Shown here in pieces: positions 10,294-43,028 of a stretch of 64,000 nucleotides of DNA (position 1 is the first letter of the stretch; every line of letters begins with the position of its first letter). Source of the DNA: an uncultured Acidobacteriota bacterium (lineage in GTDB: Bacteria; Acidobacteriota; UBA6911); contig CAWEJX010000009.1 of the NCBI GenBank assembly GCA_963809485.1, forward strand, positions 89,443-153,442, written 5' to 3'. The notes beneath the pieces were generated by a model. It was not told the origin of the DNA. It saw only the letters and a program-made list of their open reading frames with translations, and ran no database searches. The translations under genes and the position numbers were made by a program.

Positions 10294-11037
10294 ATGAGAA
10301 AAATCATAGAAATTGCAGTACACGAGGTCACGCCGAGCCGCGCCGAGGTCCTGGAAAGCCAGGGAATGGCTGGCCGGGAAAATCTGCCCGCCCGAATCGG
10401 CGCGCTCCTCGATTCGGCCCTGGAATTGTTCGGGCAGCTTGCCGAGCCTCGTGGGCTGCTTCAGGATTGGCCGATTGGGGAGTTTCGGTCGATTTACAAC
10501 GGAAATGGGCTGAATTCGCCGGAAGGCCCGGTTCCGCTCATCGTTCCAAAAGCCGATGGACTGGCTCTTTTTGCAGCGACCCTGGGCGGGGCCCTGATTG
10601 CCAAGAGCAGCGAGCTATTCGCGAAGGGAGGCCCTGCGCTTGGTTTTATGCTGGATGCGGTTAATTCCTCCGGGGCTGAAAGGCTGGGGATGCTCATGGG
10701 GCAGCGTTTTCTTGAGCTTTTGCCTGAAGAGTTGCGCCGGCCCAGGAAACTGAAGGCCCAATACTACTGCCCTGGCCACTGCGGCTGGCACATCTCGGGG
10801 CAGGCGAAGCTGTTCGAGATCCTGCGCCCGGAAGAAATAGGCATCACGCTGAACGCGAGATGGGTCATGCAGCCAACCAAATCAATTTCAGGCATACTTG
10901 CTGTTGGAGACATGGAAATACACAGGTTCAGGCCGAATTACCCTTTCTGCAAAGATTGTAAAGAACACAAATGCATTAAAAGGCTGGCGATCCTGGAGAA
11001 CACCAGTCAGGTACCTCCGGCAAAGCCGGAGGCTTGA
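10294..11037 (+). CDS. Vitamin B12-dependent methionine synthase activation-domain-like protein
   Basis: 'LFAATLG', 'LDAVNSSGAE', 'YCPGHCGWHISGQ', 'IGITLN..VMQPTKSISG', C-terminal CxxCxxxxC; upstream of a homocysteine S-methyltransferase gene. Confidence 0.8.
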   Translation: MRKIIEIAVHEVTPSRAEVLESQGMAGRENLPARIGALLDSALELFGQLAEPRGLLQDWPIGEFRSIYNGNGLNSPEGPVPLIVPKADGLALFAATLGGALIAKSSELFAKGGPALGFMLDAVNSSGAERLGMLMGQRFLELLPEELRRPRKLKAQYYCPGHCGWHISGQAKLFEILRPEEIGITLNARWVMQPTKSISGILAVGDMEIHRFRPNYPFCKDCKEHKCIKRLAILENTSQVPPAKPEA

Positions 11038-11407
11038 AAGATTTGAACCGCTCAAAGCGGTTGGACTAGTTACGCCGGTCTTGAACGCTGACTTACGCGG
11101 GCAAAAGCCGATGAGGCGCTTCCGATCCCCGCAGGGGCCAACGCTCCGCGCTGGACAGTTTTCTGCGGCGGCACTGTGGCAAGCGCCGTGCGGCAAGGAG
11201 ATGAAGGGTATGAGAAACCGGGCGTTTGCCACAGTGCCGCCGCAGAAAACTCCATCGGAAGCGCCTCATCGGCTTTTGCTCGCCGACCCTCGCCGAACAA
11301 ATCGGCGTTTGTCAGCGCTTTTATCAGCGTTTCTCAGCGTTTCAAAATACGGAGCTGTCAAACTCTTTGAGTCCCCCGGCAGAGCCGTGGGTTTACCAAT
11401 GTAATTA
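11005..11407. mobile_element. 403-bp structured non-autonomous IS200/IS605-like element, copy 1
   Basis: Begins AGTCAGG then CCTCCGGC-AAA-GCCGGAGG hairpin; ends CCCCCGGC-AGA-GCCGTGGG hairpin then TTTACCAATGTAATTA; near-identical to copies at 20950, 22733, 32814, 33852 and 42626; no target-site duplication. Confidence 0.85.
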
Positions 11408-11489
11408 GCGGGTTCCTCAAAAAATGAGCCGCAAACCAACACGAATCCTTGCGGGCGTGTTCCTTTGTGGCTGAATCGGACGGGGTCTT

Positions 11490-12389
11490 ATGCAAAACAT
11501 CTTGGAACGTTTGAGCCGGGGCGATGTGATCGTCGGGGACGGTGCGCTCGGCACACAGCTTATGAAGCGCGGCCTGAAACACGGTGATCCCCCGGAATCC
11601 TTCAATCTCACAAAACCTCAGGTCCTCGAGGAAATCGCGTCTCTATACCTGGAAGCCGGGGCGGAAATCGTCACGACCAACACCTTCGGAGCCTCCTCCC
11701 TGAGGCTGAAACAGTTCTCTTTGGAGAAGGATGTCGAAAGGATCAACCAAGGCGCTGTGCATGCCGCGCGCAGAGCAGTCGGTGGCAAAGCTTATGTTTC
11801 CGCTTCGGTAGGCCCTACGGCTCAGATGATCAAGCCTTTCGGCGACACCGAACCCGATACGGTATATTCCAGCTTTCAGCAGCAGGTGCGGGCGCTCCTG
11901 GGCGCGGGTGCGGACATGATCTGCATCGAAACCATGTCGGACCTGACTGAGGCCACGCTGGCGATTCAGGCAGTCCGCTCGATCGATCCAAGAGTTCCGA
12001 TAATGGCGACCATGACCTTCAGCAGGACCGCCCAGGGATTTTTCACATTGATGGGATCCTCGGTCGCGAACGCAGCAGCGGCACTGGAAAAGGCCGGAGC
12101 GAATATTGTCGGTTCCAACTGCGGCGACGGGACGGAGAGTATGGTTGGAATTGCCGGAGAGTTCCGTAAACACTCCCGGCTACCCATAGCCATACAGGGC
12201 AATGCGGGGCTCCCGACAGCTTCGGACACTGGCCTGGTGTACCCTGAAACGCCCGATTTCGTTGCAGGCAAAGCCGTTGAAATGCTGAATCTGGGCGTCC
12301 AGATCATTGGCGGATGTTGCGGTACGGGCCCCGAACACATTCGTGCCATACGTAAGGTTGTGGATAATCAGCGGCAGGCAGCGCCTTGA
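11490..12389 (+). CDS. Homocysteine S-methyltransferase family protein
   Basis: DGALGTQL, 'YLEAGAEIVTTNTFG', 'IETMSD', GSNC, NAGLP, IIGGCCGTGPEHI zinc-binding motifs. Confidence 0.93.
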   Translation: MQNILERLSRGDVIVGDGALGTQLMKRGLKHGDPPESFNLTKPQVLEEIASLYLEAGAEIVTTNTFGASSLRLKQFSLEKDVERINQGAVHAARRAVGGKAYVSASVGPTAQMIKPFGDTEPDTVYSSFQQQVRALLGAGADMICIETMSDLTEATLAIQAVRSIDPRVPIMATMTFSRTAQGFFTLMGSSVANAAAALEKAGANIVGSNCGDGTESMVGIAGEFRKHSRLPIAIQGNAGLPTASDTGLVYPETPDFVAGKAVEMLNLGVQIIGGCCGTGPEHIRAIRKVVDNQRQAAP

Positions 12390-12435
12390 TTGCCGTTTCG
12401 AGGAAACAGCTTTCTGCCCGTCAACCCGCCATTCG

Positions 12436-12645
12436 TCAATCGACGGCAATCATCACATTGGAAGCCTTGATCACCGCATAGGCTTCTTTGCCTGGAGCCA
12501 ACTGCAGCTTTTCCGCGGATTCTTTTGTGATAATGGAGACAATTTCCACACCCTTCATCACTTCCAAAACCACTTCCGAATTGACGGCGCCTGGTTTGAC
12601 CTGCTTGACGGTTCCCTTTAGAACATTTCGGGCACTCAGCCTCAT
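12436..12645 (-). CDS. Molybdenum-pterin binding TOBE-domain protein (Mop)
   Basis: MRLSARNVLKGTV ... IVSIITKESAEKLQL ... AVIKASNVMI, the typical 69-aa Mop signature; GGAGG RBS. Confidence 0.92.
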   Translation of the reverse strand: MRLSARNVLKGTVKQVKPGAVNSEVVLEVMKGVEIVSIITKESAEKLQLAPGKEAYAVIKASNVMIAVD

Positions 12646-12737
12646 ACTCTGCCTCCTTGGATAGCAAATTATACCATACCGGCTTCGTCACCCTCGACGA
12701 TCGTGATAGCATGGACGGCCGGAAAGGAAGGCGAAAA

Positions 12738-13385
12738 ATGGGATCCGGCTTCTTGGGGGAATTCCGCCGGGATCGGGTGGTGGCATCGCGGATCCGGGGC
12801 ACTGCAGATGATGATGGATTGCCCGAACTCTCGGACTGGAAGAGCGCTGCACCCGTCTGCTTTTGCTCCGATTGGCGGGACGAGAATCAGGATCCGCAGC
12901 GCGAAACCGAGGCCCGCCTTTTATGGTCCGCCGATCGGCTGTTCATACGCTTCCGGTGCCGCTACCGGGAAATATTTGATTACGATGAGCATAACCAGCG
13001 GCGCGACCGGCTCTGGCTCCGGGACGTGGCCGAGGTGTTTATACGCCCGTGCGGCGATGAACTCCGGCACTACAAAGAATTCGAAATAAGCCCGCATGGA
13101 AATTTTCTGGATTTGAAAATAGCCGCGGGAACCAAATCCATACTATCCTGCGACCTTAAGAGCAGGGTTGTTTTGGACCCTGCCGCCCGCGTCTGGATTG
13201 CAGAAATGGGTATACCCATGACCTGCCTCACCGCTCGCTTCAATCCTTTGGAAACCTGGCACATCAATCTTTTCCGCATCGAGGGAAAAGAGCCGTACCG
13301 TTTTTATTCCGCGTGGCGATCGACGATGACGCCTCAACCGAACTTCCATGTCCCGGAGTTGTTCGGGGAACTGCATTTTTCCTGA
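12738..13385 (+). CDS. Carbohydrate-binding family 9-like (DOMON-like) protein
   Basis: 'LW.RDVAEVFI', 'YKEFEISPHG', 'W.AEMGIP', 'INLFRIEG', 'AW..T..PNFHVPELFG'. Confidence 0.75.
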   Translation: MGSGFLGEFRRDRVVASRIRGTADDDGLPELSDWKSAAPVCFCSDWRDENQDPQRETEARLLWSADRLFIRFRCRYREIFDYDEHNQRRDRLWLRDVAEVFIRPCGDELRHYKEFEISPHGNFLDLKIAAGTKSILSCDLKSRVVLDPAARVWIAEMGIPMTCLTARFNPLETWHINLFRIEGKEPYRFYSAWRSTMTPQPNFHVPELFGELHFS

Positions 13386-13399
13386 AATCAGCGGGTTTC

Positions 13400-13443
13400 A
13401 GTAAGTATCCCCCGGCAGAGCCGTGGGATCTCCCAACGGATTA
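13400..13443. repeat. Single-hairpin 44-bp relative of the IS200-like element ends (REP-like)
   Basis: AGTAAGTATCCCCCGGCAGAGCCGTGGGATCTCCCAACGGATTA: left flank resembles the element's left terminus and right flank its right terminus. Confidence 0.55.
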
Positions 13444-13735
13444 TTTGTCACTCTTGCCTATCGGGAGCGGCGCCCGGCGGAACGGACTCCCCGCCCTCGC
13501 TCCAAATACTTCATTTAAAAGTGTCGTAGATCACATCCGCACCCCCTGAAAGCCATAATCAAAAAACCCTCAAAAGCCGAATAGTTCTCCATGTCCCATA
13601 AAGAAATCTGGCTATGTTATGGGGCAAAGTAACAAATTCACGATATTGGTCTGCTTTTTCGTATTCACAGCAGAGCATCCGGTTGAAGCGCATTCTCTGC
13701 TCCAAAAATCGCGGCAGAGATAACGAGGCACGTCC

Positions 13736-15901
13736 ATGATCCTGGGTCCCGACTCGCTGCTGGTGGTGGACAATGATGATGCAAACCGTGATCATACGGT
13801 CCAGTGTTTACTGAAATGCGGAATTGACGCAAAAGCGGCCGCCAATGCCGGAGAGGCATTAGCATGGATCGATTCCCGACGGATCGATCTGGTGCTCCTC
13901 AGCCTCTCAACGCCCGGCATGAAGGGGATAGACGTCCTCTCAATCCTCCGCAAAACACATACGCCCGAAAAACTCCCCGTCCTGCTGATCATGGACAAGG
14001 CCGGAGCCGAAGAGGAGGCTGCGGTGCTGGCGGCGGGCGCAAACGATTTCATTCCCAGGCCCGTCGTCTTCCCCGTAATGCTTGCCCGCGTGCATGCGCA
14101 TCTGTCGCGCAAGCGCGCCGAGGATGCGCTGCGTGATAGTACCGAACGCTATTCCCTGGCGGCCCGCGTCGCCAACGACGGCCTCTGGGACTGGGACCTC
14201 GTCACGGATAAGATCTATTATTCCACCCGATGGAAGCTGATGCTCGGCTGGGAAGAACATGAAATCAGCACGGATCCCGACGAGTGGTTCCGGCGCATCC
14301 ATCCCGATGATGTCGACCGGGTCCGGGCGGATATCACGTCGCATCTCGAGGAGCAAACACCCATTTTTGAAAACGAATACCGGGTGCTTCACAGGGATGG
14401 GAATTACCTCTGGATGCTCTGCCGTGGGCTTGCCGTCCGAAGCTCCGAGGGGAAACCTTTGAGGATGGCCGGATCTCAGACAGATATTACACGGGGAAAA
14501 GTGGTGGACATCCTGACTGGGTTGCCCAACCGCGTCCTCTTTATGGACAGGCTGGGCCGCTCTTTTGAGCGGGCCAAGAGACAGAAGGATAAAACCCTTG
14601 CCGTGATCTTCCTGGACCTGGACAGCTTCAAACTGATCAACGACAACCACGGACACCTTATGGGCGATCAGCTGCTTGTCGCTATTGCGGGCCGGCTCGA
14701 AGCGACGGTGAGATCCAGCGACAGTGTCGTCCGGTTCGGGCGCAACCACACAATCGCGCGGCTCGGCGGGGACGAATTTACCATACTGCTGGAGGATATC
14801 TGGAACGCACAGGACGCGACACAGGTTGCGGAACGCCTTGCCAAAGAACTGTCGATACCGTTTGTTGTCGGCGGCCAGGAACTGTTCCCCACCGCCAGTA
14901 TGGGTGTTGCCCTATACAGCCCTTCCTACAGCACTCCGGACGAAATGCTGCGCGATGCGGACACGGCCATGTACAGCGCCAAGGCTCTCGGCAAAGGGCG
15001 TTACGAAGTTTTCGACGCGGGCATGCGCGCTCACACCATAGCCCGCCAACAGCTGGTCACAGAACTTCGGCGAGCGCTGGAACATAAGGAGTTCGAGCTT
15101 CATTATCAATCGCTGGTATCGCTGGAAACAGGCAGGATCTGGGGGGTTGAAGCATTGGTCCGGTGGCGCCATGCCACCCGGGGGCTCGTTTCGCCCAAAG
15201 AATTCATACCCGTCGCGGAAGAGAGCGGACTCATAGTCGGGCTTGGCCAGTGGGTCCTCGAAACGGCTTGCCAGCAGATGCGCACCTGGCAGTCGCGTTT
15301 CCCAGACGATCCGCCGCTGTTCATCAGCGTCAACCTCTCCGCCAGGCAGTTGCTTCAGACCGACCTTGTTCAACAATGCCGCGCAGTTCTTGAAGAAACC
15401 CAACTGATGCGCAACAGCCTCAGCCTGGAGTTCACCGAAAGCGCGATGATGCCGGATCCGGAATCCGCAATCAAATTGATGTGCCAGCTCAAAACTCTGG
15501 GCATCAAGATCGCCCTTGATGATTTCGGTACCGGCTATTCATCGCTCGGCTACCTGCATCGCTTCCCGATCGACAGCCTCAAGATCGACTGTTCATTCGT
15601 ATCCCGGATGATGAAGGATGACGAAACCGTCCGCACCATTATCAGCCTGGGACAAAATCTGGGATTGAGGGTGATCGCCGAGGGAGTTGAAACGGCTGAT
15701 CAGGCCGCAAAGCTGCGGGAACTGGGATGCGAGCTCGCTCAAGGCTATTACTTCTCGGTACCGGTCAGCGCCCAGGAAGCCACGGATATGCTGGCCGCCA
15801 ATCGCCATTGGGCCACATCCATCAAATCCGCAAAATTCATGCGCGGTGACCGCCGGCAGGGAACCGTCATCGCGCCGCGCCGCTATGTCCGCTCCGGCTG
15901 A
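13736..15901 (+). CDS. REC-PAS-GGDEF-EAL cyclic-di-GMP signalling protein
   Basis: Receiver-like N-terminus, PAS ('GLWDWD','IHPDD'), 'ARLGGDEF', 'VEALVRW', 'LDDFGTGYSSL', 'IAEGVET'. Confidence 0.95.
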   Translation: MILGPDSLLVVDNDDANRDHTVQCLLKCGIDAKAAANAGEALAWIDSRRIDLVLLSLSTPGMKGIDVLSILRKTHTPEKLPVLLIMDKAGAEEEAAVLAAGANDFIPRPVVFPVMLARVHAHLSRKRAEDALRDSTERYSLAARVANDGLWDWDLVTDKIYYSTRWKLMLGWEEHEISTDPDEWFRRIHPDDVDRVRADITSHLEEQTPIFENEYRVLHRDGNYLWMLCRGLAVRSSEGKPLRMAGSQTDITRGKVVDILTGLPNRVLFMDRLGRSFERAKRQKDKTLAVIFLDLDSFKLINDNHGHLMGDQLLVAIAGRLEATVRSSDSVVRFGRNHTIARLGGDEFTILLEDIWNAQDATQVAERLAKELSIPFVVGGQELFPTASMGVALYSPSYSTPDEMLRDADTAMYSAKALGKGRYEVFDAGMRAHTIARQQLVTELRRALEHKEFELHYQSLVSLETGRIWGVEALVRWRHATRGLVSPKEFIPVAEESGLIVGLGQWVLETACQQMRTWQSRFPDDPPLFISVNLSARQLLQTDLVQQCRAVLEETQLMRNSLSLEFTESAMMPDPESAIKLMCQLKTLGIKIALDDFGTGYSSLGYLHRFPIDSLKIDCSFVSRMMKDDETVRTIISLGQNLGLRVIAEGVETADQAAKLRELGCELAQGYYFSVPVSAQEATDMLAANRHWATSIKSAKFMRGDRRQGTVIAPRRYVRSG

Positions 15902-15927
15902 CCCTATCTACCGGAGATTCGGCAGAC

Positions 15928-17592
15928 CTACCATGGCAGACTGCGCTCTTTAGGATCAGGGCAATAGTCCCGCTCCCTGTAGAAGAAAGCATCAAAATCA
16001 GCCGGGCGGCCGCTCCCCGTCATGTCCTGGCAGCACATTCCGATAAAGGATCCCGTAAAATTCGGATTTCCGGGAGGCCCGGCTTCATCGGAAAGAATGC
16101 TGGCGTCGAGGGGTCCGGTAAGCCAATTCCATTCCGCGTTTCGGACACGATAAGCAAAATAGAGACGTTCCTTGTCGACCTCAACCCTGAGTGAGACCGG
16201 GGAACCGGCCGGGATAGGAACCGGAGGCGTGAAAACGTCCGATTGAGGCTGATCGGGAAGACAGGACATGATCCTGATATGCTTGCCCAATTCCGCGTCA
16301 TGGGAAATGAACAGGTAATGAAATTTGCTCTCGTTATAGTAGCAGACCAGGCCCGCCGTCTGCTGAAAACACTCCGGCTCGAATTCCATGACGGCGCCGG
16401 CGCTGAAACAGTGAGCCTGCTGTCTGCGTGCCACGAGGGCTTGCCGGAACAGGCTGCCCAGCGATTCACAGCCATACAGGCGCAGGTAGCCGGGCCTTTC
16501 CGTAAGGCTGAAAAGCTCTCCGGGCCAGGGGGACCGCAGCCACTGAAAACTCAGGGGCAGCTTCGGATCGTCGAAGCTTTCATATGCAGGTTCCTCCGGG
16601 AAAACGTGAGGATTCAGCGCGGGAGCATCGACCTCAACGTATGGGACCCCCTCTCCGTCAAAGGTGCGCAGCCAGCCGTCTGCAGACCATTTCATGCGCT
16701 GGATGGCTGTTTCACGGCCCAGCGTACAGCGTCCCCGGTTGCGAAGAGGCCTGCCGCAGAGGTGCACCATGTAGGTTTCCCCGGTTTGTGTCTCGACAAT
16801 ATCGGCGTGCCCGGCGCGCTGCAGTCTCATATCGGGACGATCCCGGGAGGTTAAAATATGGACATCGGGGTGGAGTTCGTAAGGCCCGAACAGATGGCGG
16901 GCCCTTGCCAGAGTGACGGCATGCCCCCATCCCGTCCCTCCCTCCGCCGTGATCAGATAGTAATATCCGTTGCGCTTGTAGAGGTGCGGCCCTTCGGTGA
17001 ATCCCAGCTCCGTTCCCTTGAAGATGATGGCCGTGCGGCCGATAAGACGGCATATTTCAGGGGAATATTCCTGCAGCGCAATCCCGGCGAAACGATTGTT
17101 CCCCGGGCGATAATCCCAAACCATATTCAGGAGGTATTTCCTGCCGTCTTCATCGTGGAACAGCGAAGGATCAAAACCGATGCTGTTGAGGAATACCGGG
17201 TCGGACCATTCTCCCTCAATCGATGGGCTGGTGACGAGATAATTGTGAAAATCCCTGAGTGAGACTCCGGCACTCCCTCCCTGCGTCGTCCGGCCATACC
17301 GCTTTACATCGGTGTAAACAAGAAAATAGAGGCCGCCAGCGTAACTGAGACAGGGGGCCCAGATTCCGCACGAATCGGGATTGCCCAGCATGTTGAGCTG
17401 GCTCGCCCGGTTCAGCGGGCGGGTCAACAGGCGCCAGTGAATCAGGTCCCGGGAATGATGGATCTGCACCCCCGGGTACCATTCGAAGGTCGAGGTGGCG
17501 ATGTAATAATCGTCCCCGACCCTCACGATTGAAGGATCGGGATTGAATCCCCTTAAAATCGGATTTTGGATTTTTGCATCACTCCCCGACAT
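15928..17592 (-). CDS. Glycoside hydrolase family 43 beta-xylosidase / arabinofuranosidase
   Basis: NPILRGFNPDPSI, ATSTFEWYPG, WAPC, GFDPSLFHD, TEGPHLYK, AEGGTG, GHAD, LGRET. Confidence 0.93.
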   Translation of the reverse strand: MSGSDAKIQNPILRGFNPDPSIVRVGDDYYIATSTFEWYPGVQIHHSRDLIHWRLLTRPLNRASQLNMLGNPDSCGIWAPCLSYAGGLYFLVYTDVKRYGRTTQGGSAGVSLRDFHNYLVTSPSIEGEWSDPVFLNSIGFDPSLFHDEDGRKYLLNMVWDYRPGNNRFAGIALQEYSPEICRLIGRTAIIFKGTELGFTEGPHLYKRNGYYYLITAEGGTGWGHAVTLARARHLFGPYELHPDVHILTSRDRPDMRLQRAGHADIVETQTGETYMVHLCGRPLRNRGRCTLGRETAIQRMKWSADGWLRTFDGEGVPYVEVDAPALNPHVFPEEPAYESFDDPKLPLSFQWLRSPWPGELFSLTERPGYLRLYGCESLGSLFRQALVARRQQAHCFSAGAVMEFEPECFQQTAGLVCYYNESKFHYLFISHDAELGKHIRIMSCLPDQPQSDVFTPPVPIPAGSPVSLRVEVDKERLYFAYRVRNAEWNWLTGPLDASILSDEAGPPGNPNFTGSFIGMCCQDMTGSGRPADFDAFFYRERDYCPDPKERSLPW

Positions 17593-17626
17593 ACACACCT
17601 CCGAGCAACCACGGAAGGAGGCTCAA

Positions 17627-20724: not shown

Positions 20725-20949
20725 TTTTTAATCCTATCACAATCCTTTTTGGGGAAAAGAATGGAAGCAGCCCCCGGCCTGCAAATGCAGTCCCAACCCC
20801 GTTATGTTGGGATCGGCGGTCCGCTGCACACCGCCATATCGGATCCGGTCCATCGGGGGATCCGCCGGCTCCGGCGGGCGATGAAGTATCAATTTGCAGC
20901 ATACTGGAGCAAGCCCCTACCCCGGCGGTTCTGACCCCAACCAAGAAGA

Positions 20950-21325
20950 AGTCAGGCACCTCCGGCAAAGCCGGAGGCTTGAAAGATTGGAACCGCTCAA
21001 AGCGGTTGGAGGAATTACGCCGGTCTTGAACGCTGACTTACGCGGGCAAAAGCCGATGAGGAGCTTCCGATCTCCGCAGGGGCCAGCGCTCCGCGCTGGA
21101 CAGTTTTCTGCGGCGGCACTGTGGCAAGCGCCGTGCGGCAAGGACATGAAGAGTATGAGAAACCGGGCGTTTGCCACAGTGCCGCCGCAGAAAACTCCAT
21201 CGGAAGCGCCTCATCGGCTTTTGCTCGCCGACCCTCGCTGAACAAATCGGCGTTTGTCAGCGCTTTTATCAGCGTTTCTCAGCGTTTCAAAATACGGAGC
21301 TGTCAAACGCTTTGAGTCCTCCGGC
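20950..21325. mobile_element. 403-bp element family, copy 2 (right end truncated)
   Basis: Intact AGTCAGG left terminus and core; similarity stops after GAGTCCTCCGGC, halfway through the right hairpin. Confidence 0.85.
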
Positions 21326-21342
21326 TCCAGCGAGCATTCCTA

Positions 21343-21975
21343 CTATGCCGTCGTTTTCGGGGGCTGTGCCGGGGGAGGCGGGGGACCGCCGGAAAGCGAC
21401 CACGATTCGGTCTCGAGCGGCTTGCAGATGATCTCGGCGATGTGGAGTTCATGAAGCCGGTTGGAAGGAGCTGCGACAGCCACCACAGCCGTATCTGCGC
21501 CCCGCCCCGTTCCCGTAACCACGACGACTCTTTCACCTGCGGCCACACAGCCGCCATTGGTGGCCATGAGCAGTATTTCATGGACAACTTTCATGCCCTG
21601 GCAGAACGTGCGCAGCATCATGGCCAGTATCGAGGGGACCCTCGATCCGTACAGATCGTCCGTATGGAAAAGCATCGTCCCGAAGTACACTCGATGCCCT
21701 TGCTGTTCTAGCTCGGGAACAAGTTCTGCCGGGAAACGCTGCCCGTCGCGAAGGAAGCCGTACTGATGCGGGATCACGACCATCTGGATATCCGTACCGG
21801 CCAGAAGCCTGGCTGCCAGAAGCGCCGTCGTCCCTCTGGTGGAAGCTATCACAATTTTTCGAATGCCGCGCGCCTTCGCGCGTTCCAGCGCCAGGCTCAG
21901 CGTCATCTCGGTATTCTGCTGTCCCGGCTCCTCAAAATAGACGATTTTTTCCTCTATCCATTTCCCTTTTTCCAC
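21343..21975 (-). CDS. Stand-alone pyruvate kinase alpha/beta (C-terminal) domain family protein
   Basis: 'YFEEPG..NTE.TL', 'IVIASTRGTTA', 'LRTFCQGMKVVHEILLMA', 'GTGRGADTAVV', 'EIICKP'; GTG start after GGAGG. Confidence 0.8.
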   Translation of the reverse strand: MEKGKWIEEKIVYFEEPGQQNTEMTLSLALERAKARGIRKIVIASTRGTTALLAARLLAGTDIQMVVIPHQYGFLRDGQRFPAELVPELEQQGHRVYFGTMLFHTDDLYGSRVPSILAMMLRTFCQGMKVVHEILLMATNGGCVAAGERVVVVTGTGRGADTAVVAVAAPSNRLHELHIAEIICKPLETESWSLSGGPPPPPAQPPKTTA

Positions 21976-22071
21976 TGCAGTATCCTCCCGGCCTGTGCGC
22001 AAATAGACTCCAGCCGCTTTCGCTTCTCCAGGACGCTCCTAAGCCCGGCTCGACAGTAATTATCCGCTCAT

Positions 22072-22656: not shown

Positions 22657-22732
22657 TGTTTTAGTGTACCTTGAAGCTTCGAGGACTCAAAGGGCGAGAC
22701 CCGCTATTCCTTCCGTTATCCCCCGTTTCAAC

Positions 22733-23125
22733 CACCTCCGGCAGATCCGGAGGCTTGATTGTATGCCGCTCAAAGCGGTTGGAGGAGTTACGCCGGTCCT
22801 GAACGCTGACTTACGCGGGCAAAAGCCGATGAGGCGCTTCCGATCCCCGCAGGGGCCAGCGCTCCGCGCTGGACAGTTTTCTGCGGCGGCACTGTGGCAA
22901 GCGCCGTGCGGCAAGGACATGAAGAGTATGAGAAACCGGGCGTTTGCCACAGTGCCGCCGCAGAAAACTCCATCGGAAGCGCCTCATCGGCTTTTGCTCG
23001 CCGACCCTCGCCGAACAAATCAGCGTTTGTCAGCGCTTTTATCAGCGTTTCTCAGCGTTTCAAAATACGTAACTGTCAAACTCTCTGAGCTCCCCGGCAG
23101 AGTCGGGGGTTTACCAATGTAATTA
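22733..23125. mobile_element. 403-bp element family, copy 3 (left terminus decayed)
   Basis: AGTCAGG absent and left hairpin has a mismatch (CCTCCGGCAGATCCGGAGG); core and right terminus ...TTTACCAATGTAATTA retained. Confidence 0.85.
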
Positions 23126-23131
23126 TTCCAG

Positions 23132-23175
23132 AACTGTAAAACTCTGGGAGTCTCCCAGCAGAGCCGGGTTTACCA
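23132..23175. repeat. Degenerate extra copy of the element's right end
   Basis: AACTGTAAAACTCTGGGAGTCTCCCAGCAGAGCCGGGTTTACCA versus consensus AGCTGTCAAACTCTTTGAGTCCCCCGGCAGAGCCGGGGGTTTACCA. Confidence 0.7.
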
Positions 23176-23194
23176 GTTTGTCTCAGGCAGCCGG

Positions 23195-32542: not shown

Positions 32543-32813
32543 TCCGGATCTCACAAACGAATGCCCGGAATCCGGAATAGGGAAGCCGGGCAAATGGAAT
32601 CCGAAGTCCTCAAAGGTTTTTGCCGAACCGGCGCATTCCCGGTTTTCGCATCATGTCGGAGGTCGCCCTTTGCAGCTTTTGAACCTTCAATCTGTAACCC
32701 TCAACGAGTGACGAATCCCCGCTCATATCGCCGCAGCAGGAAGGCCTTGAAAAAACAATTTGGAGTCAAGATTTGACGAAATAAAAAGCCTTCGGGCGAA
32801 ACAATACGGATGG

Positions 32814-33216
32814 AGCCAGGCACCTCTGGCAAAGCTGGAAGCTTGAAAGATTTGAACCGCTCAAAGCGGTTGGAGAAGTTACGCCGGTCTTGAACGCTGA
32901 CTTACGCGGGCAAAAGCCGATGAGGCGCTTCCGATCCCCGCAGGGGCCAGCGCTCTGCGCTGGACAGTTTTCTGCGGCGGCACTTTGGCAAGCGCCGTGC
33001 GGCAAGGAGATGAAGGGTATGAGAAACCGGGCGTTTGCCACAGTGCCGCCGCAGAAAACTCCATCGGAAGCGCCTCATCGGCTTTTGCTCGCCGACCCTC
33101 GCCGAACAAATCGGCGTTTGTCAGCGCTTTTATCAGCGTTTCTCAGCGTTTCAAAATATGGAGCTGTCAAACTCTTTGAGTCCCCCGGCAGAGCCGGGGG
33201 TTTACCAATGGAATTA
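32814..33216. mobile_element. 403-bp element family, copy 4
   Basis: Full length; several substitutions in the left hairpin (CCTCTGGCAAAGCTGGAAG); right hairpin perfect. Confidence 0.85.
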
Positions 33217-33241
33217 CATCTATCCCCGAAGGAGGAATCCC

Positions 33242-33805
33242 ATGTCCGTCATGGCGCTGAAGGCCGCTGACTATCGACCCAGGTACAGACGCTATCCTTC
33301 GCCTGCAGAATTAAGACGTTTTGAAATGCTCGATGGAGTCCTATGCATGATTCCGGTCCCGGACACAAGACACCAGGCGGTTGCGCTGAGAATGGCTTCC
33401 GCCTTGTTTGAACGTATTGAAGCCGGAAACCTGGGACTGGTGTTGCAGGCGCCTTACAGCGTCATGCTATCCGGCAATACCGTTGTTCAGCCGGACATTC
33501 TATATGTGCGGAAAGAGCGCCGAGGCATGGTCGGCAGGATGAATTTGCATGGCGCGCCTGATCTCGTCATAGAGGTACTATCCGAAGGAACACGGCTAAG
33601 AGACCTTACCCTGAAGCGAAAAATATATGCCCGCTTCGAGATACCGGAATACTGGATTGTGGATCCCGAAGCGGAAAACGTTGAGGTGCTGATCTGGAGC
33701 GAGTGGGGATACGCCACTGCCGGTGTCCCGGGAAAATCCGGCCGGCTGTCCTCGCCCATGCTTCCCCTTGGCATTCCTCTTTCCGGAATATTCAAAACAG
33801 GGTGA
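33242..33805 (+). CDS. Uma2 (DUF820) family PD-(D/E)XK endonuclease-like protein
   Basis: 'FEMLDGVL', 'VVQPDILYV', 'GAPDLVIEVLS', 'KRKIYA..IPEYWIVDP'; AGGAGG RBS. Confidence 0.9.
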   Translation: MSVMALKAADYRPRYRRYPSPAELRRFEMLDGVLCMIPVPDTRHQAVALRMASALFERIEAGNLGLVLQAPYSVMLSGNTVVQPDILYVRKERRGMVGRMNLHGAPDLVIEVLSEGTRLRDLTLKRKIYARFEIPEYWIVDPEAENVEVLIWSEWGYATAGVPGKSGRLSSPMLPLGIPLSGIFKTG

Positions 33806-33851
33806 AGTCTGCCCAGGACTGCATCCGTCAAAACTTCAGCCAGCCCCCAAC

Positions 33852-34094
33852 AGTCAGGTGCCTCCGGCAAAGCCGGAGGCTTGAAAGATTTGAACCGCTC
33901 AAAGCGGTTGGACTAGTTACGCCGGTCTTGAACGCTGACTTACGCGGGCAAAAGCCGATGAGGCGCTTCCCGATCCCCGCCGAACAAATCGGCGTTTGTC
34001 AGCGTTTTTATCAGCGTTTATCAGCGTTTCAAAATACGGAGCTGTCAAACTCTTTGAGTCTCCCGGCAGAGCCGGGGGTTTACCAATGTAATTA
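33852..34094. mobile_element. 403-bp element family, copy 5 (243 bp, core deleted)
   Basis: Both termini present; sequence jumps from ...GATCCCCGC to CGAACAAATCGG..., removing the inner stem and the right arm of the outer stem. Confidence 0.85.
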
Positions 34095-34473
34095 CATACT
34101 TTGTATACGGTCGAAGTTGGTCAAAGCCTTTTCCGGCACATCCTGGCGTTCCTCGTTCCCACTCTGCAGGTTCCCCAATAAGGCGGTGAGGATTATGGCC
34201 GCCTTTATGCCCCTTGGGAAAATGCGCGATTTCCGTTAAAATACAGTCAGCTTTTGTGGCAATGAAAGCGTGCAGGGCTTACCCGCCTGCGGTATGATCG
34301 AACCAGACTATGGATTCCGGGTATCTTCCCTCAAAAGCGGATCCTGTCCGCAATTCTTCGGCCCGGAACCATTCACCAGGAGGAGGGAAAAGCGCTTAGT
34401 TTGGTGTAGTGACAGACGTCACAGGTTTCGAGGCCATGGTGACCCGATACTGTAGCCTCGAGAGGAATGTTCC

Positions 34474-36132: not shown

Positions 36133-36348
36133 GCGGAAAAAGCACTGGCTGTAAGGGGACAGCCTGATCGCGCAATTCCTGAAGGCAGGCTTCAAAAGGG
36201 ATTCCGGTATTGAGTTCGCGGCAGGAAATCACAGGGATTTTGTTGAAAAGGCACACCGGGCAACGCTTTTGATATGAAGAACCGGACCACATTTTTTTCG
36301 GGAAGCTATGTCCTGGTTTCCCTGATTTAGGAGCGGGGCTTAGAAAGC

Positions 36349-36906: not shown

Positions 36907-37099
36907 CTCGCAGCCGTCTCCCGGCCGGGACGGAATCCTCGATTCGATCCCGCCTTCATCCGGACCATTCTCCCGCAAACTGCATCTTCGATCCCATTTC
37001 ACGCCGCAACGCCGCCAGCGGTGGCGGATAGATATTTCAGGCAATCCCGAACAGAGCCGGACTGTTTTTTTGTTTCAGCATCCTGCGTCGACATTTTTC

Positions 37100-37166
37100 T
37101 TGACAAGGCATTTGCGGGGACTAGAATAGTCTCATTAAGGTTATTATAGTCTCTTATAGGAGACTA
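37100..37166 (+). promoter_or_regulatory. Sigma70-like promoter with a palindromic operator
   Basis: TTGACA(37100)-16 nt-TAGAAT(37122); TAGTCTC-TTATAG-GAGACTA palindrome at 37147-37166 and a second TAGTCTC half-site at 37127. Confidence 0.55.
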
Positions 37167-37596
37167 ATACTTGTTTTCGGATAAACGACATCGCGGGGTT
37201 CGCAGGCACGGCGGGGGCCCGAGAAAGGGCTCCTCGGGAGGACAGGCCGGTATTGGGAGCAGTCCGTCACTTCCTTCGAAAGACACGCAATGAACCGGTG
37301 AATCATCGGGATCAACGGCGGACGATCCACCCGTCCCGAATCCGGCGGCAGAAAGGATGCATCCCGGCACCATGGTTGAAGCTTTTCCCTGCCCGGGCAT
37401 TCAAGAGCAGCACCCCTGCCGGAATTTTTATCCGGTCATCCGCCGGGTTCCATGCGCGAAGCCATGGGGCGCGGATGCAGCCGTACCCGTTTCGGATGGG
37501 CAGAGCTCAGAGAGCCATTTGCATGACGCCGGGCGCCGCAATCCCGACCTTTGTTTACCGAAAGCAGAGCCAATGATTTGAAAGGAGCGGTGCACT

Positions 37597-38682
37597 ATGG
37601 GAAGGATCTATCGATATATCGGATGCGCCGTGCTGCTCGCGCTTCTGACCCTTGTTTCCTCATCCCTGCCGGCCGGGCAGGCGGGCGGAGGAAGCCAAGG
37701 CGCAGAAAGCAAGTACGGGAAATACCTCTTCTACGATGCTGCACCGTTTCAGATTCCTCCCGAGATGGCGGCAAAAATGAAGGAAGCCCAAAAGAAAGAA
37801 CCCTCCACCGTCGAGGCAACCCGCCTGATAAACATCGACGGCACGAGGATGCAGGGCGCCCCTTACATGGATTTTGTATGGCTGTGGAAAGGTTCTTCCC
37901 AGGGTTATGTCGAGGAGGAGCATATCCACAATTTCGACGAGTTCATCGGGTTCATAGGCACGCGGGGCCAGCAGGATCCCCACGGCCTGGGCGGCGAAAT
38001 GGAGGTCTGGCTGGGCGGCGAAAAATACCTGATCACCAAAAACTGCCTCATCTATGTGCCCAAGGGCGTCAGGCATTGCCCCATCCGATTCAACCGGATC
38101 GACACCCCCTTACTCTTCTTTACCGGATCTTTCAGCAGCCAGGAGGCCAAGTACACCCGCACGCCGACTCAGTTCAGCGATGCCAAGGCTTCGGAGCGGA
38201 ATTACGCCAAGTACATCTCCTATGGCGTCAATCCCAAAAAAGCTCCTCCCAAGGATGATTCCCCTGAGGCCAAAAAGAAATTCGCCGAAATGCGCGCGAA
38301 AAGCGGCTCAACCATAGAGTCCACCCGCATCCTGGATCTCGACCTGGTAGAGGGGGCTCCCTATATAGATTTTGTGTGGATGTACAAAGGGTATGAGAAA
38401 CAGGTCACCCACCCGGAGCATGCCCATGACTGGGGCGAAATTTTCGGTTACATCGGTTCCGTCGGCCAGCAGGACCCGCACAGCATGGGCGGAGAGGTTG
38501 AATTCTGGATCGATGGAGAAAAGCACGTCCTGAACAAAAGCTGCCTGGCATGGATTCCACCGGGGCTTCCCCATTGCCCGGTGAGATTCGCCCGGATCGA
38601 TAAGCCCATCCTCTGGTTCACGATATCGATAGGAATGACAGGCGGCCAATATACCTTTGCGCCATCGGCGAAAAAACAATAG
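37597..38682 (+). CDS. Exported tandem-duplicated cupin-like protein
   Basis: Signal peptide; two internal repeats, each with HxHxxxE (HIHNFDE, HAHDWGE) and 'P.G..HCP' motifs; AAGGAG RBS. Confidence 0.75.
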   Translation: MGRIYRYIGCAVLLALLTLVSSSLPAGQAGGGSQGAESKYGKYLFYDAAPFQIPPEMAAKMKEAQKKEPSTVEATRLINIDGTRMQGAPYMDFVWLWKGSSQGYVEEEHIHNFDEFIGFIGTRGQQDPHGLGGEMEVWLGGEKYLITKNCLIYVPKGVRHCPIRFNRIDTPLLFFTGSFSSQEAKYTRTPTQFSDAKASERNYAKYISYGVNPKKAPPKDDSPEAKKKFAEMRAKSGSTIESTRILDLDLVEGAPYIDFVWMYKGYEKQVTHPEHAHDWGEIFGYIGSVGQQDPHSMGGEVEFWIDGEKHVLNKSCLAWIPPGLPHCPVRFARIDKPILWFTISIGMTGGQYTFAPSAKKQ

Positions 38683-38892
38683 CCGGAGGCTCAGGCTTTG
38701 CCGGCCGGCCAAAGGCCGTTTCGCCCGAAGCGGAGAACTGTCGATATTTTGCTCGTTCCCCAGAGTCTATAACGACCGAGCGGAGTGATATTCGGTTTGC
38801 TGGATGTCTATTTTTCACGAACATCGGATTTTTTGTGACGCTGGATCCCCGAAACAGCCAGCAACTTCCAGCCCGCATGGACAGGCTATGAG

Positions 38893-39693
38893 GCGCCTCT
38901 CGGAAATACCTGGTATGACTCACTGCAAATCAAGGTCACCAAGCGCTATTCCCATGGACTCGACCTCACCAGCGGATTCACCTGGCAGAAAGAACCCATG
39001 AGGGGTTCGGAAATGGAGTTCATGGCGCCCTGGATCACCGTCGCCGTCAACGACGTGTTCGACCGCGCCATCAACAAATACATCTCCGGCTACTCCCGTC
39101 CCTTCACGTTTTTTGCGGCGGCGAACTACACGGTGCCCACACTCCACGGGAACAAGGCGCTTTCCTGGACGCTGCGGGACTGGACCATCGGCGCCGTTTT
39201 GCAGTATGTGAGCGGAATGCCGATCCGAGTCCCGATCGCGCAGAACCAGCTCAGCACGCTGCTGTTCAGAAACACTTTCGCAAACCGTGCCCCGGGCGAA
39301 GACCTATGGACGACGGATATCAACTGCCACAACTGCCTCGATCCATCCCAGGATTTTGTGCTGAATCCCAAAGCCTGGGCGGATCCGCCGGATTGCCATT
39401 TTGGAGTCTCCGCCGCTTATTACACCGACTACCGCCAGATGCGCCGTCCCTCGGAAGCCATGAGCATCGGGAGGATCTTCAGGATCAAGGAAGGCGTTCA
39501 GTTCAGTATCCGGGCGGACTTCCAGAACATTTTCAACCGGACTTTCATTGTCAATCCGTCTTCGACCAATGCTAAGCAAACGCAAGTGCGCAATCCCAGC
39601 AGCGGCATGCCGGTTTCAGGTTTCGGATACATCGACACTTCCACAGGCACTTCGCCGCGCCAGGGCATTATCGTCGGCCGGATCATGTTTTAG
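38893..39693 (+). pseudogene. C-terminal remnant of an Oar-type TonB-dependent outer-membrane receptor
   Basis: The frame of ORF 38998 extends upstream as APLGNTWYDSLQIKVTKRYSHGLDLTSGFTWQK; 'IRADFQNIFN', ends 'PRQGIIVGRIMF' with terminal Phe; plug and most of the barrel are missing. Confidence 0.75.
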
Positions 39694-40581
39694 CTGCCGG
39701 ATCCATCCCGTCCGGCGCCCTCCTATCCGGCAGGAGAGCGCCGGGCGGCAGCCTTTGTGTCAAATAGTAATGCCGGAAATACAGGCTTTAAATAGCTTCA
39801 CTCCTGAGGCACCCGGGCCGGCGGAAGGGGCCGCCCGGGTGGGATTTCCTTTTTCAAAGCTTACAGGGGATCGCCAGGAATGCCCGGGAGCTTGGATACA
39901 ACGGGAAATGACATCAGCAATCTGTACTCAGTCAAATGCGCCACCCAATTTCTCCGGGTTCTCGGCTTTGGACGATCCCGTCAAGACCGCAAACAGAGCT
40001 TTCAGCGAGACCTGTTCGTGTGAATCGTTTGTTCTAAGTCCTTTTATGCAGCCACTCGATCCCGGGAGATCGGGAGCATGCTGAGTGGCATCCCCGGCGT
40101 TCCGGATCTCCTCCTCCCGAATCCGGAACGCCGGGATTCTCCCTACGAAACAATCTGCCAGGAAATCCGCTTCAGACGAGCGTTGAGCTTCCCTTTATTG
40201 GCAGGCTTGCCAGTTACGGAATGGCTACAACGGAAGGAGGAAATGTGTCCTGTGACGCAGCTCCGCTCATTCTTATCCATTGATACATCGGGCCCCGATT
40301 TCGGCTCCCGGGAGCAGATTGGGTTTTCAGCATGGGCCCGCCAAAGTATATTCCGGCATTCTTCACCCCCCGCTGAGTGTTAAGATGGTTGACATACGGT
40401 TCATGGAGCCCAAATCAAAAGAGTTCCAAAATTGGGACTCAGGCATGAGCATTTCCGGGAGGGGGTAAAGGCACCATGCAAGGATGTCTTCCTCAATACG
40501 GAGTCGCCGGCAAAATTAAAGCAGCGATTCTGCCCTGCCCAAAAGCAGTCCATTATCAGAGTCCACTTTAGGAAAGGAGGG

Positions 40582-41289
40582 ATGGCAATGGCAGGTTCCC
40601 CACGATTTCCATTCCATTTGGCCGGTCTTATGCCGGTTTGCCTGGTCTGGATTTTGCTCTCCCAGGCAACCGCTGCAACCCTGAGAATTGGCGAGCACGG
40701 AGCCCATCTGTATTTGAACAAAGACGCTGCAAGCGAAAAGATCGCCACCCTTCAACCGGGAGAGGAAGTAATCCCAATCCTGCAGATAGTCGGACAGGAT
40801 GCATGGTACCGGGTTAAAACCAGGGAAGGCCGCGTGGGATGGCTAAAAGCCTCCGAAGTAGCGAGAGTTGAGGAGGAAGAAGAAGAAATATCCGTGAATG
40901 CCAACGAATCCGTTGTTCGCTTCGCTTCCGGTTCAACCTGGAGTGCCCGCACACGCGACGGCAAATTGTTCGGCGGCACATGGACCGGCGCTATAGATCG
41001 CGCAAAGGGCACGGCCTCCGGCAGTTGGACTCTGAAAGACGCAGCGGGCCGGGATATTTTGCGCGGGACCTGGTCCGCCAACAAGCTGGAGCAGGAATGG
41101 AAAGGCGCGTGGCGCGCGCTGATCGTTGGGCATGAAGGGGAGCGATCCGGAACCTGGGATGCTGCGATTCAGATCCCCTCCAATGCATCGCTGGCCGAGA
41201 TGTTCGAGAAGGCGGTGAGTCAGACAGTCAGCGGCCAATGGCAGACTGCCGGTCAGGCGGGCAGCTGGTCCATCATCGCAGTTCGATGA
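40582..41289 (+). CDS. Exported SH3-domain protein
   Basis: AAGGAGG RBS, signal peptide, 'WYRVKT..GRVGWL' bacterial SH3 motif, C-terminal GxW repeats. Confidence 0.7.
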   Translation: MAMAGSPRFPFHLAGLMPVCLVWILLSQATAATLRIGEHGAHLYLNKDAASEKIATLQPGEEVIPILQIVGQDAWYRVKTREGRVGWLKASEVARVEEEEEEISVNANESVVRFASGSTWSARTRDGKLFGGTWTGAIDRAKGTASGSWTLKDAAGRDILRGTWSANKLEQEWKGAWRALIVGHEGERSGTWDAAIQIPSNASLAEMFEKAVSQTVSGQWQTAGQAGSWSIIAVR

Positions 41290-41812
41290 GCCGTTTTGGA
41301 TCCGGGCGCTTCGGAAACACCATGAACCCCGCCTGCTTCAGCCGCTTGCGTACGCTGAAAGGAGCCGATGACGGGCACCCTTTACTATCAGCGTCTATAT
41401 GCGCTTTTGTCCGCACATATCGTTGTTCCCGGATTCCGGTGCCATTAAATCCGGTGACATCCCCCAAATATAGGAATTAGCATCTGACGCTTATGGGCAT
41501 GCTGTTTACACCGGGGATTTGGTGTTGATTTGCCCAGGTCGGGGGATGATAATAGCGCCATCCTCATTCATTTTCTGCATTGGATGGGGGATGGACATCC
41601 GCTTCCCAGGCGTTGTGCCTTTTGCACCGATCATTCGCGTTTCAGCGGTTCCGGCTTAAGCAGCTTGGAGCAATAGGCTCATTCCGGGCGGATGAAATAG
41701 CCCGGCCGGCGAAATGACCGGGAAATAAAAAATGATCAAATTGGATGAATCCGATGCCTTCCTTGAGAAGTATGGATCGGGTTCCATCGCAGCTTGAAAT
41801 GCAGGAGGAGAA

Positions 41813-42226
41813 ATGCGTCGAATAATGCTTGCGTTTATTTTGCTCTGTTTCGTCCAGGCATATGCCAAGGACCCCGTTCCGGAGGCGCTTTTGAATGCGA
41901 AGACTGCTCTCGTCAAGAATGGAGGAGCTTCGGAGAAAGATTTCAACAAGCTCAACGAATCTCTGAAGAAGTGGGGGCGCTTTGATCTCGTGGAGGACAG
42001 GAAGAGCGCCGATATTGTTATCACGCTCAGTACGGGGCTCGGCGTTCGAAACATGGAAAGGCCCGGGGGAAGCGGCGCTGTCCAAAGTCTCCAGGTGCAG
42101 GTAAATTACCTCAGCATTACCAGTGCGCGCGATGACAGCAAACTGTGGGACGACGAAACCCCCGGCTATGAGAAAAACCCCGATATTCTTGTCTCCAGCC
42201 TCAAACGCAAGCTGAAGAAGAAATAG
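41813..42226 (+). CDS. Hypothetical exported protein
   Basis: AGGAGGAG RBS, signal peptide, 'LKKWGRFDLVEDRKSADIVI'. Confidence 0.7.
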   Translation: MRRIMLAFILLCFVQAYAKDPVPEALLNAKTALVKNGGASEKDFNKLNESLKKWGRFDLVEDRKSADIVITLSTGLGVRNMERPGGSGAVQSLQVQVNYLSITSARDDSKLWDDETPGYEKNPDILVSSLKRKLKKK

Positions 42227-42625
42227 GTAGTAGCGCGGTGTGCCCCGATACCGCATTCGGGCTGAAGTACAAAGATACGGACCTGCTCCGCGTTTCACCA
42301 TGGCACGCAGCCGGCCTATGCAGCCATACATCGATGGGTCCGGGCGGATTCCCTATAAGCAATACCGGTTTTAGCCGTCGACGGTCGACTTCGAATTGGC
42401 CCGCAGACCACAACCATGAGAGAGGGCGCGATTATTCTGCATTCGCCTATGCAGCCTGAAGAGAGGATAGAAAAATTCAACATTCCTTGCTTCAACCTGT
42501 AGTAGTATTGCAGCCAGAGAGTAAGGAAAGCCGGCATCGTGGAACTGATCAGAAGGTGAAACGGCTCGACAGATGGAGGATTTTGGAGAGGGAGCTTTGT
42601 TTTGCTTGTCGTGCTGAAACGGATC

Positions 42626-43028
42626 AGTCAGGCACCTCCGGCCAAGCCGGAGGCTTGAAAGATTTGAACCGCTCAAAGCGGTTGGAGGAGTTATGCCGGT
42701 CTTGAACGCTGACTTACGCGGGCAAAAGCCGATGAGGCGCTTCCGATCCCCGCAGGAGCCAGCGCTCCGCGCTGGACAGTTTTCTGCGGCGGCACTGTGG
42801 CAAGCGCCGTGCGGCAAGGAGATGAAGGGTATGAGAAACCGGGCGTTTGCCACAGTGCCGCCGCAGAAAACTCCATCGGAAGCGCCTCATCGGCTTTTGC
42901 TCGCTGACCCTCGCCGAACAAATCGGCGTTTGTCAGCGCTTTTTTCAGCGTATCTCAGCGTTTCAAAGTACGCAGCTGTCAAACTCTTTGAGTCCCCCGG
43001 CAGAGCCGGGGGTTTACCAATGTAATTA
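42626..43028. mobile_element. 403-bp element family, copy 6
   Basis: Full length from AGTCAGG to GTAATTA with both terminal hairpins intact. Confidence 0.85.

Follow-up and report, generated by a model that had tools for sequence, protein, structure and literature searches.

The 64,000-nt stretch analyzed here (the window; G000:C9:89443-153442) comes from an uncultured Acidobacteriota bacterium whose assembly, G000, comprises 6.04 Mb in 21 contigs and is 95.67% complete. It contains six copies of a repeat of at most 403 bp, and these repeats are very probably a non-autonomous derivative of the IS200 group (IS200/IS605 family), of the class known as palindrome-associated transposable elements (PATEs). 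An initial annotation of the sequence had proposed a non-autonomous IS200/IS605-type element in which the transposase gene tnpA is replaced by a folded interior, and this reading is upheld by the homology of the ends to those of autonomous IS200 elements, by empty sites in a sister species, and by a pentamer retained at the insertion site.

The autonomous tnpA element with the same ends that had been anticipated exists in the congener G015 (locus L061), where, in window orientation, a left module is followed by an intact 143-aa tnpA on the minus strand and by a right module. The G015 TnpA reaches 127.6 bits on the NCBIfam model NF033573 ("IS200/IS605 family transposase"; cut-off 55). In G030, which belongs to another family of the class, an element of ~415 bp (L046) has both modules and carries tnpA residues 1-81 on the opposite strand. 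Given the direction of tnpA in L061 and L046, the canonical (tnpA-sense, "top") strand of the family is the minus strand of the window, so that the right end of the initial annotation is the canonical left end (LE) and its left end the canonical right end (RE). When the G015 TnpA was used to scan genomes collected at species level, 480 relatives were found among 600 candidate stretches, and the best 80 loci, from Acidobacteriota, Alpha-, Beta-, and Gammaproteobacteria, and others, were examined. Of these 80 loci, short-probe blastn matched 62 with the LE probe, 29 with the RE probe, and 18 with both; the LE-probe matches mostly comprise no more than the 14-16-nt hairpin core, ~100 nt upstream or ~90 nt downstream of tnpA. 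For each end, seven tnpA-bearing copies were picked from the 80 loci plus L061 (Acidobacteriota, Proteobacteria), and the element aligns with them at both ends. The aligned LE consists of a TAAYY pentamer, ~12 nt, a hairpin CCCCCGGC-TCTG-CCGGGG, and then the invariant GTTTGACA; the aligned RE has a hairpin CCGCTTTGAGCGG, a hairpin GCC(C/T)CCGGC-TTT-GCCGG(G/A)GG, and ~9 nt ending in ACT. Both end modules are homologous to the ends of autonomous IS200 elements, and the parent clade is tnpA-only IS200.

A repeat search of the window, together with a MAFFT alignment of the copies and their flanks, placed the six near-identical copies where they had been annotated, with copy 3 starting at 22734, and a genome-wide blastn census added no seventh copy in the window. 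All six lie in the same direction, on the plus strand, the canonical strand of each being the minus strand. Copies 1 (11005-11407, the 403-bp form), 4 (32814-33216), and 6 (42626-43028) are full length. Copy 2 (20950-21325) corresponds to element positions 1-376, the last 27 nt, with the canonical LE terminus and the target, being missing; copy 3 (22734-23125) covers positions 9-403, lacks the first 8 nt, and has a diverged canonical RE terminus. Copy 5 (33852-34094) is a 243-bp short form produced by an internal deletion of the core between the short direct repeats CCGAYCCYCGC. The intervals delivered by the repeat search around the six copies were 11004-11410, 20946-21355, 22719-23128, 32810-33219, 33848-34097, and 42622-43031. 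A solitary LE-module-like fragment (CTGTAAAACT...CCCAGCAGAGCCGGGTTTACC; 23134-23183, minus strand), read from the sequence, stands right after copy 3.

The alignment bears out the sharp boundaries that had been described, similarity beginning at AGTCAGG and ending after AATTA; in a logo over the 185 two-ended copies of the genome, the flanks hold 0.00-0.11 bits per position, AGTCAGG 1.07-1.91, and AATTA 1.35-1.91. The two related subterminal hairpins of the initial annotation are present in the window copies and are those of the canonical RE and LE. Along copy 1, with all stranded features on the minus strand, the RE hairpin CCTCCGGC-AAA-GCCGGAGG (11014-11032), which aligns with the RE of autonomous IS200 copies, sits 9 nt inside a terminus that reads ...TACCTGACT on the top strand, and a second small hairpin of the RE module, CCGCTCAAAGCGG (11048-11060), is conserved in autonomous IS200 relatives. 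The unstranded palindromic core (11097-11283; element positions 93-279), flanked by AAAA/TTTT and deleted in short forms, occupies the place of tnpA; its stems are near-perfect (positions 93-122/250-279 and 153-183/217-247), in agreement with opposite-strand self-matches. There follow GTTTGACAG (top strand; 11355-11363), which is unchanged in every autonomous relative whose LE was aligned and is likely to be the -35 box of the lost tnpA promoter; the LE hairpin (11373-11391), with the consensus CCCCCGGC-AGA-GCCGGGGG and one arm mutated in copy 1; and AATTA (top strand TAATT; 11403-11407), the retained target pentamer abutting the LE. Terminal inverted repeats (TIRs) are absent, as had been noted, the left terminus AGTCAGGTACC and the right terminus ...CCAATGTAATTA not being reverse complements, and the similar end hairpins stand in direct orientation on the same strand. 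Predicted folds of single-stranded DNA (ssDNA) show the end hairpins forming independently in each of three sequences: the 243-nt form, the short form of G015, and intact IS200. With at most 403 bp, the element is too short for a transposase, and none of the four Y1_Tnp matches in the genome falls inside a copy.

We compared the flanks of G000 copies with ~1.15 Mb of sequence from the sister species G006, to which the aligned flanks are ~77-97% identical. Among 21 comparable sites in G006, 13 are empty (gap below 60 nt), one is intermediate, and seven are occupied. Seven of the empty sites are clean, and at each of them a single pentamer is found and nothing is repeated, in line with the claim that insertion duplicates no target; TAAT(T) is kept on the minus strand where it had been predicted. 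The G006/G000 pentamers are AATCC/AATTA, CATTA/AATTA, TATTA/AATTA, AATTA/AATTA, AATGA/AATCA, AATTA/AATTA, and AATCA/AATCG. One clean site, for instance, reads ...GCCCATG-AATTA-TGAATA... in G006 and ...GCCCATG[AGTCAGG...CCAATGT]AATTA-TGAATA... in G000, and the site of copy 4, also clean, reads GGATGG-AATCC-CATCT and GGATGG[element]AATTA-CATCT, respectively; that of copy 3 is empty in G006 with an imprecise junction. Because clean empty sites hold one pentamer and no repeat, AATTA is a retained target that was present before insertion, and the element sits 3' of a TAATT-like pentamer on the top strand. Sites with imprecise junctions (c1, c3, L078, L084a, G000:C21:134822, and four other sites) were excluded from the target call. 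G006 also has insertions that are absent from G000; mobility is recent, and insertions differ between the two sister species.

The high amplification claimed for the family is confirmed by a blastn search of G000 with copy 1, which finds ~300 copies. The search gave 909 high-scoring segment pairs, 104 of which are at least 350 nt long with a median identity of 96.5%, so that the repeat family is far above chance expectation. Merging yielded 346 places, 313 of at least 100 nt and 185 with both termini under a strict rule; counting places that span element positions 5 or lower to 395 or higher as two-ended gave 85 full-length and 116 short copies. The element accounts for 85,555 bp in total, or 1.42% of the genome. 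The 45 places without both termini are all fragments of one flank or core-deleted internal pieces. Among 40 relatives, the full element was found solely in the congener G006, at 94-97% identity, and its first ~60 nt were matched in 16 of 41 genomes (G000 included), including other families of the class. A pair of ends lying 771 bp apart on contig C6, the size of an insertion sequence (IS), was rejected as two separate copies. At G000:C20:734861-734905 there is a ~45-nt terminal-only "solo hairpin" copy, in which both termini are fused through one hairpin, and G006 has a 235-bp copy at this site.

The orientation of the copies is strongly biased. With the copies masked, we compared the direction of each of the 313 with the sign of the surrounding GC skew, and the top strand lay on the G-rich strand in 216 when ±10 kb were considered, in 234 with ±50 kb, and in 260 with ±100 kb (binomial p 6e-34). 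Several contigs are near-uniform (C20, 69 "+" and 4 "-"; C6, 0 "+" and 23 "-"; C1, 22 "+" and 1 "-"). The switch of orientation on C7 falls between 440,690 and 483,354, an interval that holds the only DnaA-domain match of the genome (454,563-455,039), with 16/18 copies "+" to the left of dnaA and 11/13 "-" to its right. The orientation of neighboring genes does not explain this bias, since in a control based on crude calls of open reading frames (ORFs) the left gene was co-directional with the copy in 191/313 cases and the right gene in 149/313. As the G-rich strand is the leading-strand sequence, and hence the lagging-strand template, the top strand lies preferentially on the lagging-strand template, GC skew and dnaA serving as a proxy for the origin.

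We searched the whole genome for the mobilizing enzyme with Y1_Tnp and TnpB domain models. Neither gave a match on contig C9, in agreement with the earlier statement that tnpA and tnpB are missing from the window. Four Y1_Tnp matches were found in G000 (Y1a, Y1b, Y1c, and Y1d), none with ends of the element nearby. Y1a, an IS200-type gene interrupted by an in-frame TAG, shares 50% identity with the G015 TnpA, and its upstream end is homologous to the canonical LE (GGTAAACC-hairpin-GACTCGAAAAGG) with a different stem. It was rejected as the cognate parent given the differing hairpin stem, the lack of a recognizable downstream end, and the in-frame TAG. An old IS200 copy stands at orthologous sites in L031 (G000:C6:297047-300400) and L058 (G006:C43); the L031 copy has an in-frame TAG and lies directly beside part of a tyrosine-recombinase-like ORF, and that of L058 has a C-terminal frameshift. 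The intact Y1b, an IS200-like gene of 150 aa (L032, G000:C15:224127-227471; gene at 1405-1857, minus strand), is flanked on both sides within 1.1 kb by arrays of two other small hairpins, CCCGGCCTT/AAGGCCGGG in four copies and CCGTCGC/GCGACGG in five, so that its surroundings look like a separate arrangement of the kind formed by repetitive extragenic palindromic (REP) sequences and their RAYT genes. Y1c is a truncated Y1 gene. Y1d encodes a 279-aa RAYT-like Y1 protein (L034, G000:C20:1131501-1134830; ORF at 1039-1878, minus strand), and weak Y1_Tnp matches in the congeners G005, G015, and G024, open frames of 240-273 aa, may be its counterparts. No hairpin of the element occurs within 3 kb, and no end within 6 kb, of Y1b or Y1d. 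TnpB domains were found in none of the G000 candidates (PF07282, 0/34; PF01385, 0/12), the positive controls being detected, and the IscB probe PF14239 gave no match in G000, but as its controls were silent too, this result is uninformative. A tnpA-like match of 17 aa at C20:806317-806367 (minus strand) was rejected as a decayed fossil with a stop codon and no adjoining IS end; it corresponds to the N-terminal part of tnpA (…SLEHTQ*ECKHHI…) and lies 70 nt from an element copy. The transposase behind the burst is outside the assembly, being either unassembled, or lost, or left only as decayed copies.

The predicted fold of the 403-nt element has -222.9 kcal/mol (z -14.1) on the plus strand and -227.1 kcal/mol (z -11.6) on the minus strand, and since it is equally good on both, the "structured core" is a long DNA palindrome. 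Core deletions recur: the junctions (128,279), (107,278), (94,298), and (118,254) are found at 28, 18, 8, and 7 different loci, respectively, and many single junctions occur besides. Because such core-deleted derivatives have themselves been amplified, the core is dispensable for spread. The palindromic fold of both strands, this dispensability, and the lack of an Rfam family leave without support the further idea of the initial annotation that the cargo is possibly a mobile structured RNA. At gathering thresholds, Rfam recognized only a tRNA (63406-63478) in the window, and at E-values up to 10 a single copy gave only hairpin matches at chance level, the best score being that of a plant miRNA hairpin (MIR1861; 41.3 bits, gathering threshold 88). 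A simple promoter and terminator scan of copy 1 gave 0 sites and no full sigma-70 promoter, the scan accepting only loops of 3-8 nt, to which the long hairpin is invisible. RNA-library contigs, taken from four runs of as many studies, are confined to the element: at 11005 and 11407 they diverge into many different flanks, and they include core-skipping joints that leave out 145-195 nt. These runs matched shares of 0.05-0.15 of a 2-kb query, and the contigs give no strand, ends, or level. Since DNA carry-over from a repeat of ~300 copies gives equal cover, the contigs are compatible with carry-over and do not demonstrate transcription.

We also considered the core as an independent nested miniature inverted-repeat transposable element (MITE) and rejected this, as none of the 45 places mentioned above consists of the core (93-279) alone and the core is never met in G000 apart from an IS end. 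A core-like short hairpin (ACGCTGACTTACGC...GGCAAAA-stem-TTTTGC) lies at ~5970-6045 of L054 (G002:C54), ~110 nt downstream of a gene and without recognizable IS200 ends. All 159 G000 matches of this G002 sequence fall inside element places, and L054 may represent a remnant, or it may hint at where the cargo came from.

These data are best accounted for by a PATE derived from the IS200 group. Each copy retains just the two end modules, which a Y1 HUH TnpA recognizes as ssDNA hairpins, and tnpA has been replaced by a long palindrome, passenger DNA that would be unneeded for movement. As the element has no tnpA, mobilization in trans is required; a TnpA so supplied would excise the top strand (window minus strand), which would be reinserted by "peel and paste" at replication forks, on the template of the lagging strand and 3' of TAATT. 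Several points weigh against this explanation. The assembly, 95.67% complete, contains no intact cognate tnpA, and the G006 ortholog of Y1a is frameshifted in its C-terminal part. Six further empty sites have imprecise (ragged) junctions. The target length, TAAT or TAATT, is not fixed, because the empty-site pentamers come from a species whose flanks are ~77-97% identical. Hairpin binding, cleavage, and the ssDNA circle are steps that we infer from sequence only. The strand assignment rests on GC skew and one dnaA match, and 53 of the 313 copies are discordant; contig C8 is mixed, with 27 "+" and 18 "-" copies in alternating blocks, a mixture that could come from rearrangements or assembly mis-joins.

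Other explanations were weighed against the same evidence. The repeats could owe their amplification to a function of their interior, as vehicles for a mobile bidirectional terminator, an ssDNA "zipper" joining the two ends, or a structured RNA. The interior does fold far better than shuffled sequence (z -14.1 and -11.6), the element is covered by contigs of the four RNA-library runs, and the short elements of G015 carry at the same place an unrelated long hairpin, likewise flanked by A- and T-runs, which is the only hint that a foldback may be favored. However, an equal fold of both strands is what a DNA palindrome gives, and core-less forms have been amplified at least as much as full-length ones (116 short against 85 full-length copies), and their junction classes recur. 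All Rfam families stay below their gathering scores (41.3 against 88 bits at best), the simple scan shows neither terminator nor promoter, and the interior stem is absent from the centroid fold of the 243-nt form. Convergent-gene contexts are weakly in excess (98/313), and the contigs are strandless and would be obtained equally from DNA carry-over of ~300 copies. We therefore regard a functional cargo as quite unlikely. A reading of the interior as a guide (omega) RNA that serves, in trans, a TnpB or IscB nuclease would fit the statement of Meers et al. (PMC10055086) that PATEs often encode omega-RNAs, but G000 has no TnpB-domain match (0/34 and 0/12), the parent clade is tnpA-only IS200, and no omega-RNA or HEARO-type Rfam family was matched even at E-values up to 10, which makes this proposal highly improbable.

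As regards the enzyme, the repeats might be a REPIN-like population kept by a domesticated host Y1 enzyme, Y1b or the RAYT-like Y1d, rather than by an IS200 transposase. In its favor, no Y1 genes of the assembly other than Y1b (150 aa) and Y1d (279 aa) are intact, congeners have Y1d-like genes too, and lineage-specific insertions have occurred despite the lack of an intact cognate tnpA. Yet neither gene is flanked by hairpins or ends of the element, Y1b has hairpin arrays of its own, and the ends of the element are homologous to those of classical IS200 copies; moreover, both Y1b (21.6 bits) and the G015 TnpA (34.9 bits) miss the REP_Tyr_transpos cut-off of 80. A host-maintained population of this kind thus seems very unlikely. 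An ordinary TIR-bearing MITE moved by a DDE transposase would share the high copy number, small size, and intergenic location of the repeats, but their termini are not inverted repeats, the similar hairpins are in direct orientation, and none of the seven clean empty sites shows a duplication; this explanation is refuted by the empty sites and retains next to no probability. Parts of these ideas might also hold together, the interior not being junk but an end-zipping foldback or bidirectional terminator, and a domesticated, non-cognate Y1 cross-mobilizing an IS200-derived element. The former notion stems from two lineages, G000/G006 and G015, in which unrelated long hairpins bordered by A- and T-runs have taken the place of tnpA, and the latter from a ~300-copy burst in genomes whose only intact Y1 genes, Y1b and Y1d, are of host type; we consider this combination unlikely.

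Some further features of the window were recorded. A segment of ~1.26 kb that includes copy 2 (20782-22038) is replaced by ~44 nt in the syntenic region of G006, and the same segment holds an ORF (21343-22002, minus strand) with a pyruvate-kinase C-terminal-like domain (35.1 bits). Copies 4 and 5 bracket an ORF of the Uma2 family of putative restriction endonucleases (33035-33805); in the orthologous stretch of G006, the site of copy 4 is free of the element. A further repeat, direct and at least 300 nt long (51955-52254 and 56635-56934; 99% identical, 4,680 nt apart) is unrelated to the element.

Uncultured Acidobacteriota gain with this element a well-documented, very high-copy PATE family with a defined parent clade, target, and insertion polymorphism. 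Annotators should treat its copies as repeats to be masked, not as ORFs or RNAs. Copy orientation marks replichores and the origin in a fragmented assembly, which is of practical use for scaffolding and annotation. Current understanding of IS200/IS605 elements is unchanged by it.

Small non-autonomous MITEs attributed to IS200/IS605-family transposases include Nezha in cyanobacteria and Chunjie in Geobacter. The autonomous IS200, IS608, and ISDra2 have subterminal hairpins on one strand and a fixed target of 4-5 nt that is retained at the left end, insertion taking place 3' of it, and they produce no duplication; single-strand transposition of this kind involves a circular ssDNA intermediate and cleavage guided by bases 5' of each hairpin. 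They are IS200/IS605 elements with a Y1 HUH TnpA that move as single strands by "peel and paste" (PMC3597680, PMC6006769), and IS608 and ISDra2 prefer the lagging-strand template (PMC6006769). The element resembles them in its subterminal hairpins, retained target, lack of duplication, and preference for the lagging-strand template, and its ends are homologous in sequence to IS200-group copies; unlike them, it has no tnpA, its target is TAATT-like, and the distances from hairpin to putative cleavage site, read from the nucleotide sequence alone, are ~12 nt (LE) and 9 nt (RE). REPIN-RAYT systems likewise consist of hairpin elements in high copy that are not autonomous and need a Y1 HUH enzyme (PMC3116915, PMC3337134, PMC8266576). 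REPINs are paired short inverted REPs tied to a single-copy RAYT that they flank, whereas here the two end modules differ and stand in direct orientation, the flanking target is fixed, and none of the RAYT-like genes of the genome is flanked by the element. The PATE-like minimal IS elements of Geobacillus stearothermophilus described by Meers et al. (2023, PMC10055086) are gene-less, with LE and RE common to autonomous members, and are predicted to be moved in trans by one TnpA; they belong to TnpB- or IscB-bearing families and may carry omega-RNAs, whereas the parent here is tnpA-only and no TnpB was found in G000.

The closest parallel is provided by the PATEs of Haloquadratum walsbyi. As described by Dyall-Smith et al. 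(2011, PMC3119063), these lack TIRs and target duplications, have similar near-terminal palindromes at both ends, are too short for a transposase, and possess ends related to IS605-type transposons and a short conserved terminal targeting oligonucleotide; their "homogeneous" families exceed 90% identity, their cores undergo deletion, and ~50-bp terminal-only versions arise by deletion between palindromes. The element shows all the defining features tabulated in that paper, and the likeness extends to the core deletions and the ~45-nt terminal-only copy of G000. The Haloquadratum PATEs are also reported there as mobile though all or nearly all IS200-type transposase genes are pseudogenes, and this puzzle of recent PATE mobility without an intact cognate transposase gene recurs here. 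The novelty implied by the initial annotation is reduced accordingly: no Rfam family matches, but transposase-less IS200/IS605 derivatives are a class already described as PATEs (PMC3119063). A literature search, with paper supplements and ISfinder outside its reach, found no published PATE-type element in Acidobacteriota. Unlike the Haloquadratum PATEs, the element has a bacterial (Acidobacteriota) rather than a haloarchaeal host and a parent of the tnpA-only IS200 group rather than of the tnpB-bearing IS605/IS1341 type, and a single family here has ~300 copies with a palindrome of ~190 nt as interior. It belongs, then, to a known kind of mobile DNA, from whose described members it differs in the phylum of its host, its tnpA-only IS200 parent, its number of copies, and its palindromic interior.

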